A stretch of DNA of 64,000 nt. It comes from Escherichia coli (GTDB taxonomy: Bacteria > Pseudomonadota > Gammaproteobacteria > Enterobacterales > Enterobacteriaceae). The translations under genes were made by a program, and so were the position numbers. The notes under the pieces were generated by a model, which saw only the letters and a program-made list of their open reading frames with translations, searched no databases and was not told the DNA's origin. Location of the stretch: NCBI RefSeq assembly GCF_030384885.1, contig NZ_CP128613.1; one strand, given 5' to 3'. Shown here in pieces: positions 50,324-50,613 of this stretch. Each line of letters begins with the position of its first letter. Within the stretch, counting starts at the first letter, position 1.

Positions 50324-50613
50324 GTATACAGATCGTGCGATCTGTTGTGGGTAACTCTGTCAGGAAGCTTGGATCAACCGGTAGTTATCCAAAGAACAAC
50401 CGTTGTTCAGTTTTTGAGTTGTGTATAACCCCTCATTCTGATCCCAGCTTATACGGTCCAGGATCACCGATCATTCACAGTTAATGATCCTTTCCAGGTT
50501 GTTGATCTTAAACGCCGGATCCTTGTTATCCACAGGGAAGTGCGATCCTAATAAGAGATCACAATAGAACAGATCTCTAAATAAATAGATCTTCTTTTTA
50601 ATACTCAGGATCC
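50324..50613. other. oriC: chromosomal replication origin oriC
   Basis: DnaA boxes R1 TTATCCACA (50541-50549), R2 TGTGTATAA, R3 TTATCCAAA and an R4-position TGTGGGTAA; three GATCT-type AT-rich 13-mers at about 50551-50600; about a dozen GATC sites; lies between mioC and mnmG. Confidence 0.9.

Follow-up and report, generated by a model that had tools for sequence, protein, structure and literature searches.

A natural T>C variant of the DnaA box R4 in the replication origin of an Escherichia coli strain and its recurrence in Enterobacteriaceae

The stringent consensus of the DnaA R-boxes is TTWTNCACA, with T at position 4 (PMC5835720). According to Katayama et al., the DnaA helix 434–451 reads 5'-TnCACA-3' in the major groove, while TTA is read in the minor groove by Arg399 (PMC5742627). 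In the scheme of Leonard and Grimwade, two of the three boxes R1, R2 and R4 are enough, whichever they are, though with defects in timing; cells that lose R1 or R4 come to depend on Fis and IHF, DnaA bound at R2 is able to nucleate oligomers, and C1 is placed 3 bp from R4 (PMC4451416). R4 is dispensable on the chromosome (PMC4451416, PMC4585315), chromosomal origins without it being viable, with slow growth and asynchronous initiation (PMC4585315). A ChIP-seq study of 2024 reported that DnaA binds mainly to pairs of boxes lying 2–3 bp apart (PMC11317965). Natural variation of R4 has also been described, since Frimodt-Moller et al. (2015), comparing 59 E. coli strains, found a T>C change at position 4 of R4 in strain E2348/69, and argued that even small changes of oriC may lose in competition, which would explain its strong conservation (PMC4585315).

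The DNA analysed here (hereafter, the window) is a stretch of 64,000 nucleotides from an E. coli genome. An intact oriC was found between mioC (nt 49880–50323, + strand), which is transcribed toward the origin, and mnmG (gidA; nt 50702–52591, + strand) on the other flank, as delimited by their ORFs and by the annotation of a near-identical genome. The segment nt 50300–50640 (341 bp) matched 5,424 of 5,426 complete E. coli genomes, with 95–99.7% identity, and the locus can be regarded beyond doubt as the E. coli oriC. The boxes R1, R5M, R2, R3 and R4 occur in the canonical order, orientation and spacing, in a gap-free alignment with seven E. coli origins. As the first-pass annotation had stated, R1, R2 and R3 read TTATCCACA (nt 50526–50534, + strand), TTATACACA (nt 50420–50428, − strand) and TTATCCAAA (nt 50385–50393, + strand), respectively; R1 is the sole perfect consensus box in the 64-kb window, and R3 overlaps C2/C3. 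R5M reads TCATTCACA (nt 50471–50479, + strand). The AT-rich duplex unwinding element (nt 50548–50591, − strand) is present with its three 13-mers GATCTnTTnTTTT, all exact matches to those of K-12 (R, nt 50548–50560; M, nt 50563–50575; L, nt 50579–50591), and 14 GATC (Dam/SeqA) sites lie within nt 50324–50620. A GATC-containing low-affinity site, TTGATCCAA, identical to that of K-12, was located by its motif at nt 50369–50377 (− strand), and we take it to be I3 on published maps. The low-affinity site C1, the first to be occupied from DnaA bound at R4, was placed at nt 50358–50366 (− strand) from the published 3-bp spacing to R4 (PMC4451416), and its putative sequence is identical in the other aligned E. 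coli. Given the near-identity to functional origins and the viability of strains having the same R4 variant (see below), the oriC of the window would be expected to sustain DnaA-dependent initiation.

Two minor sequence differences in the aligned origins are also reported. At nt 50605, on the outer margin of the AT-rich region to the left of the L 13-mer, the window has T in place of C (CTGAGTATT as against CTGGGTATT, read on the other strand), a base that among the aligned genomes is common only to strain 2013C-4282. In strain 22AR0118 the R3 box reads TTATCCAAG and the mioC stop codon is TGA instead of TAA, at the positions homologous to window nt 50393 and 50322, respectively.

The R4 box occupies nt 50346–50354 (− strand) and its 9-mer begins 23 bp past the mioC stop codon. 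A non-consensus 9-mer had been claimed at this position, and the claim was borne out, the given strand reading TGTGGGTAA, that is TTACCCACA in box orientation, in place of the consensus TTATCCACA. The changed base is nt 50351 of the window, G on the + strand and C at box position 4 (T>C), so that R4 departs from TTWTNCACA at one of its eight specified positions. The perfect R4 of K-12, as given in the first-pass annotation, was recovered by alignment, the K-12 laboratory strain having TGTGGATAA on the given strand and not sharing the 9-mer of the window. Further single-base differences from K-12, also noted there, do exist, at nt 50306, 50344, 50345, 50401, 50513, 50538 and 50605. The R4 base change in this sequence is thus confirmed as genuine. 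When the 341-bp origin segment was aligned with that of strain 2013C-4282, nt 50351 was the sole difference.

Strain 2013C-4282 (human stool, USA) is the closest complete genome and has a consensus R4. Over the 64 kb, 20 mismatches and 1 indel set it apart from the window, 11 of the mismatches falling in one 16S patch (about ten independent differences). Two outgroups, MFDS1022581 and EC42405, polarised nt 50351 as derived in the window. Seven substitutions altogether are window-derived, two of them synonymous (nt 58603 in atpG and nt 62975 in glmU), three conservative missense (nt 5948, T290N in wecA; nt 50246, A>C, I123L in mioC; nt 62492, M180I in glmU) and two intergenic (nt 34708, G>A, upstream of rrnC, and nt 50351, T>C at position 4 of the oriC R4 box). 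The SNP at nt 34708 precedes the 16S rRNA gene by about 180 bp and may fall within the rrn promoter region.

Further relatives were retrieved from a large assembly index by means of the MioC allele of 2013C-4282. Four more assemblies with the oriC haplotype of the window (GT at nt 50344–50345) were found, all having a consensus R4; over 1,644 bp, nt 50246 and 50351 are the only positions at which they depart from the window, apart from one assembly with one extra site. Because both the nearest genome and the sampled relatives of the same haplotype carry the consensus, the R4 change is recent and private to this strain, i.e., a tip mutation. The simple lineage variation that had been offered as an alternative is therefore rejected for nt 50351. 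On the other hand, it does account for nt 50306, 50344–50345, 50401, 50513, 50538 and 50605, which are common to 2013C-4282. Acquisition of the base by recombination from another strain with C at this position of R4 was rejected as well, since all such strains have AC at nt 50344–50345, only six bases away, where the window has GT.

The private SNP at nt 50246 is located 105 bp from the one in R4. Among 80 Enterobacteriaceae species, 78 have Ile at residue 123 of MioC; the exact MioC protein of the window (I123L) was absent from an index of 153 billion genes. So close a pair of SNPs might point to one local event instead of two independent mutations; with a chance probability of P = 0.067, their closeness was treated as a coincidence.

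Other differences emerged from the same comparison. The 11 clustered mismatches with 2013C-4282 lie at nt 33491–33527, inside a 16S rRNA gene, where the window agrees with both outgroups; the divergent patch sits in 2013C-4282 and probably derives from gene conversion between rrn copies. At nt 14081, between rep and a gene for a PemK/MazF-family toxin, a G run differs by one base in length from that of 2013C-4282, and again the window agrees with the outgroups. At about nt 17727–19205 the annotation of a near-identical genome places three hypothetical genes between ilvY and ilvA, which abut each other in two related genomes, thus indicating a small lineage-specific insertion.

The frequency of the variant was determined in 5,426 complete E. 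coli genomes. Since megablast needs an exact 28-base word, 51-mer probes made of the substitution and of 25-base consensus flanks seed only on carriers. With the single probe for the variant of the window, six records were retrieved, namely A27 (tapir, Venezuela), GN02323 (human blood) and four records of E2348/69. A spectrum query was then built with all 27 single-base substitutions of R4 and R1, in two haplotype backgrounds each, and of R2, in one, a design blind to double substitutions or deletions inside a box. It matched 23 records altogether. At R4, T4>C alone was found (six records, three strains: E2348/69, A27 and GN02323), and no other single-base variant of this box occurred among the 5,426 genomes, even though the same query did detect variants of R1 and R2. 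These were A7>C in one record for R1 and, for R2, A>G at position 5 (the free N) in 14 records, C6>A in one and T1>C in one. The expectation that such an R4 would be unusual is therefore right as to its rarity in E. coli (6 of 5,426 complete-genome records, from three strains), but not as to precedent, which exists in E2348/69 and in other Enterobacteriaceae. Indeed, the change in the window is an ordinary natural variant of a well-known element, the same T4>C having already been published for E2348/69.

The window and the three strains with C at position 4 of R4 carry four different oriC haplotypes. Moreover, the sampled assemblies having the exact MioC allele of each of these strains show a consensus R4; the relatives of E2348/69 matched in this way also have its distinctive C at nt 50343, and three of those of GN02323 also have its A at nt 50378. 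As the haplotypes differ and the MioC-matched relatives keep the consensus, T4>C in R4 has arisen independently at least four times in E. coli, the window included. Each carrier is a singleton in the complete-genome set, with no sampled relative having the change.

Probes with 27-base flanks gave 901 matches, which were rejected as spurious because the junction base coincided with a common polymorphism, in all likelihood A at nt 50378; this base probably explains about 880 of them, including those in Nissle 1917, ATCC 11775 and NU14. The C>A change at nt 50378, found in GN02323 and others, adjoins the GATC-containing low-affinity site between R4 and R3. Metagenome scans returned the variant in 0 contigs and the consensus in 3 contigs only, too few for a frequency.

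To compare the box between species, the origins of 80 Enterobacteriaceae species representatives were anchored on MioC, and 79 of the 80 provided enough sequence to be aligned. The R4 9-mer was the consensus TTATCCACA in 67 of the 80 species, TTATACACA, which differs at the free position 5, in 6, the variant of the window TTACCCACA in 5, and TTATCCCCA and TTATCCACT in one each. The five species with TTACCCACA fall into two clades, one made of Citrobacter sp. R56 and Awk 4 (about 97% identical to each other) and the other of Pseudescherichia vulneris, 'Escherichia' sp. ESNIH1 and the metagenome-assembled genome UBA7338 (about 95% identical to each other). Both clades show 84–88% identity to the nearest species with a consensus R4; compared with the 95–97% inside the clades, this indicates that the variant persisted through speciation.

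The same substitution was found in other boxes. R1 reads TTACCCACA in two of the 79 aligned species, Enterobacter soli and UBA7338, the latter thus having TTACCCACA at both anchors R1 and R4, and R5M shows T4>C in one Enterobacter clade. R2 varied across the 79 species at position 5 only, and T4>C was not seen at R2 or R3, either in the E. coli spectrum or in the 79-species alignment. Between species T4>C arose at least five times across R1, R4 and R5M. Of the 12 independent events that we counted at specified positions of R1 and R4, 8 are T4>C; generous null models with a transition bias give this excess a P of about 1e-5 or less. Judging from these sequences, when the anchor boxes R1 and R4 depart naturally from consensus, T4>C is the preferred and best-tolerated change. 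As for R3, the form TTATCCACG/T, nearer to consensus, was observed only where R4 is non-consensus (TTATACACA or TTACCCACA), in five origins, UBA7338 included, which may reflect either compensation or shared ancestry.

Taken together, these data are best explained, with a probability of roughly 0.7, by a recent T>C change in R4, the high-affinity box that anchors the initiator complex on the right, that is tolerated and mildly weakening. One transition, T>C at position 4, took place in an E. coli strain that is a close relative of 2013C-4282. DnaA reads TnCACA with its recognition helix, position 4 being the first of these bases, and for this reason the affinity for R4 is expected to be lower (PMC5742627). 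A weakened R4 is accordingly plausible, and the box may now be a medium- or low-affinity site, although the loss of affinity might be next to nothing. The literature searched yielded no measured affinity of DnaA for TTACCCACA, the 9-mer turning up only in primers and unrelated papers. The origin should still fire, as any two of R1, R2 and R4 would suffice on the chromosome; DnaA bound at R2 could nucleate the right-hand oligomer, and the 3-bp spacing between R4 and C1 would favour cooperative binding of the pair. The preference of DnaA for boxes 2–3 bp apart (PMC11317965) agrees with the idea that C1 would cooperatively support a weakened R4. Inside oriC no compensating change was observed, the 341-bp origin being otherwise identical to that of 2013C-4282, and dnaA lies outside the window. 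The expected cost would be small: during fast growth, initiation would come slightly late or lose some synchrony, and the cells would rely more on Fis and IHF. We propose that such a small cost is the reason why the variant recurs, yet stays rare in E. coli. Its retention in other genera shows that it need not be deleterious in every background.

A different reading is that T4>C in a strong DnaA box is neutral: placed at R4, TTACCCACA would bind DnaA with roughly the affinity of the consensus, nothing would be weakened and the variant would simply drift. Retention of the R4 variant through speciation in two clades would agree with neutrality, as would the occurrence of T4>C also at R1 and R5M, and at both R1 and R4 in one genome. 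A neutral variant would nevertheless be expected to reach an appreciable frequency, as the polymorphisms in the adjacent flanks do, while only three singleton strains were found in the 5,426 genomes and the sampled MioC-matched relatives keep the consensus. In addition, position 4 is a specified T in TTWTNCACA (PMC5835720) and belongs to the part read by the helix (PMC5742627). Neutrality is thus unlikely.

Slightly less probable again is that T4>C acts as a recurrent functional switch, converting a nucleotide-indifferent high-affinity anchor into a weaker, cooperativity-dependent site and thereby retuning the timing of initiation, and that it is brought back time and again across Enterobacteriaceae by selection or by a mutational hotspot associated with DnaA binding. 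We keep this reading in view because T4>C appears at R4, R1 and R5M and, in one genome, at both anchors.

Recurrence might also have a source other than simple tolerance, either a hotspot for mutation at the fourth position of boxes occupied by DnaA, or positive selection favouring a weaker R4 under certain conditions, for instance prolonged storage in the laboratory or a given host niche. T4>C has indeed arisen at least four times at the E. coli R4 and at least five times between species, far above any other change, and E2348/69 is an old, much-passaged strain. Nevertheless, a hotspot intrinsic to the boxes would predict some T4>C at R2 or R3, where neither data set has any, and no sign of spread was seen within E. 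coli lineages. A tolerance filter alone explains the single change observed, and mutation bias and selection are inseparable in the present data. Both forms of this explanation are very improbable.

No better chance can be given to a sequencing or assembly error at nt 50351 over a true consensus R4, which could be suspected from a base private to the window, from a second private SNP within 105 bp and from the absence of the resulting MioC allele from the 153-billion-gene index, given that the window shows no homopolymer indels on its own side (the one indel agreeing with the outgroups), that its seven derived SNPs are a plausible natural mix, that the identical substitution is real elsewhere, including four E2348/69 records and a published description, and that a random error would need to strike the one substitution repeatedly tolerated in nature.

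Considered by itself, the oriC of the window is normal for E. coli apart from a single private point mutation with published precedent, and as such it matters little. The only mildly new point, of modest interest for the field of replication initiation, is the recurrence across species of T4>C, by far the most frequent natural departure from consensus at R1 and R4 in Enterobacteriaceae, seen in E. coli in single strains only, while two clades from other genera have kept it. Such a distribution suggests that position 4 matters less for DnaA binding than the textbook consensus implies. Pairs of R4-T and R4-C origins on the same haplotype represent natural allele pairs by which the anchor-box affinity needed by the cell could be gauged.

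Among known origins, that of E2348/69 has the same R4, TTACCCACA, in the same place of an otherwise standard E. coli oriC. Its haplotype is unlike that of the window, with C at nt 50343, AC at nt 50344–50345, G at nt 50401, T at nt 50455, A at nt 50513 and C at nt 50538, so that the two R4 variants must be considered of independent origin. The K-12 oriC shares with the window the same elements in the same order and spacing (13-mers, R1, R5M, R2, R3, the R4 position and the GATC sites), with 97.7% identity over the 341 bp; of the eight single-base differences only nt 50351 falls in a high-affinity box. In Pseudescherichia vulneris and its relatives, as well as in Citrobacter sp. R56 and Awk 4, R4 is likewise TTACCCACA and lies just as far from the mioC stop codon as in the window. 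In both these clades the variant is common to every sampled member, whereas that of the window is a tip mutation, and in the Pseudescherichia group R3 is nearer to consensus (TTATCCACG/T), which might compensate for the altered R4. Finally, R4-deficient chromosomal origins engineered by Weigel in 2001 and by Bates in 1995 were reportedly still viable. Those engineered by Kaur in 2014 were viable too, according to the summaries of that work (PMC4451416, PMC4585315). In such engineered origins the whole box was scrambled or deleted, while in the window one base only is changed, with an effect that is presumably much milder.
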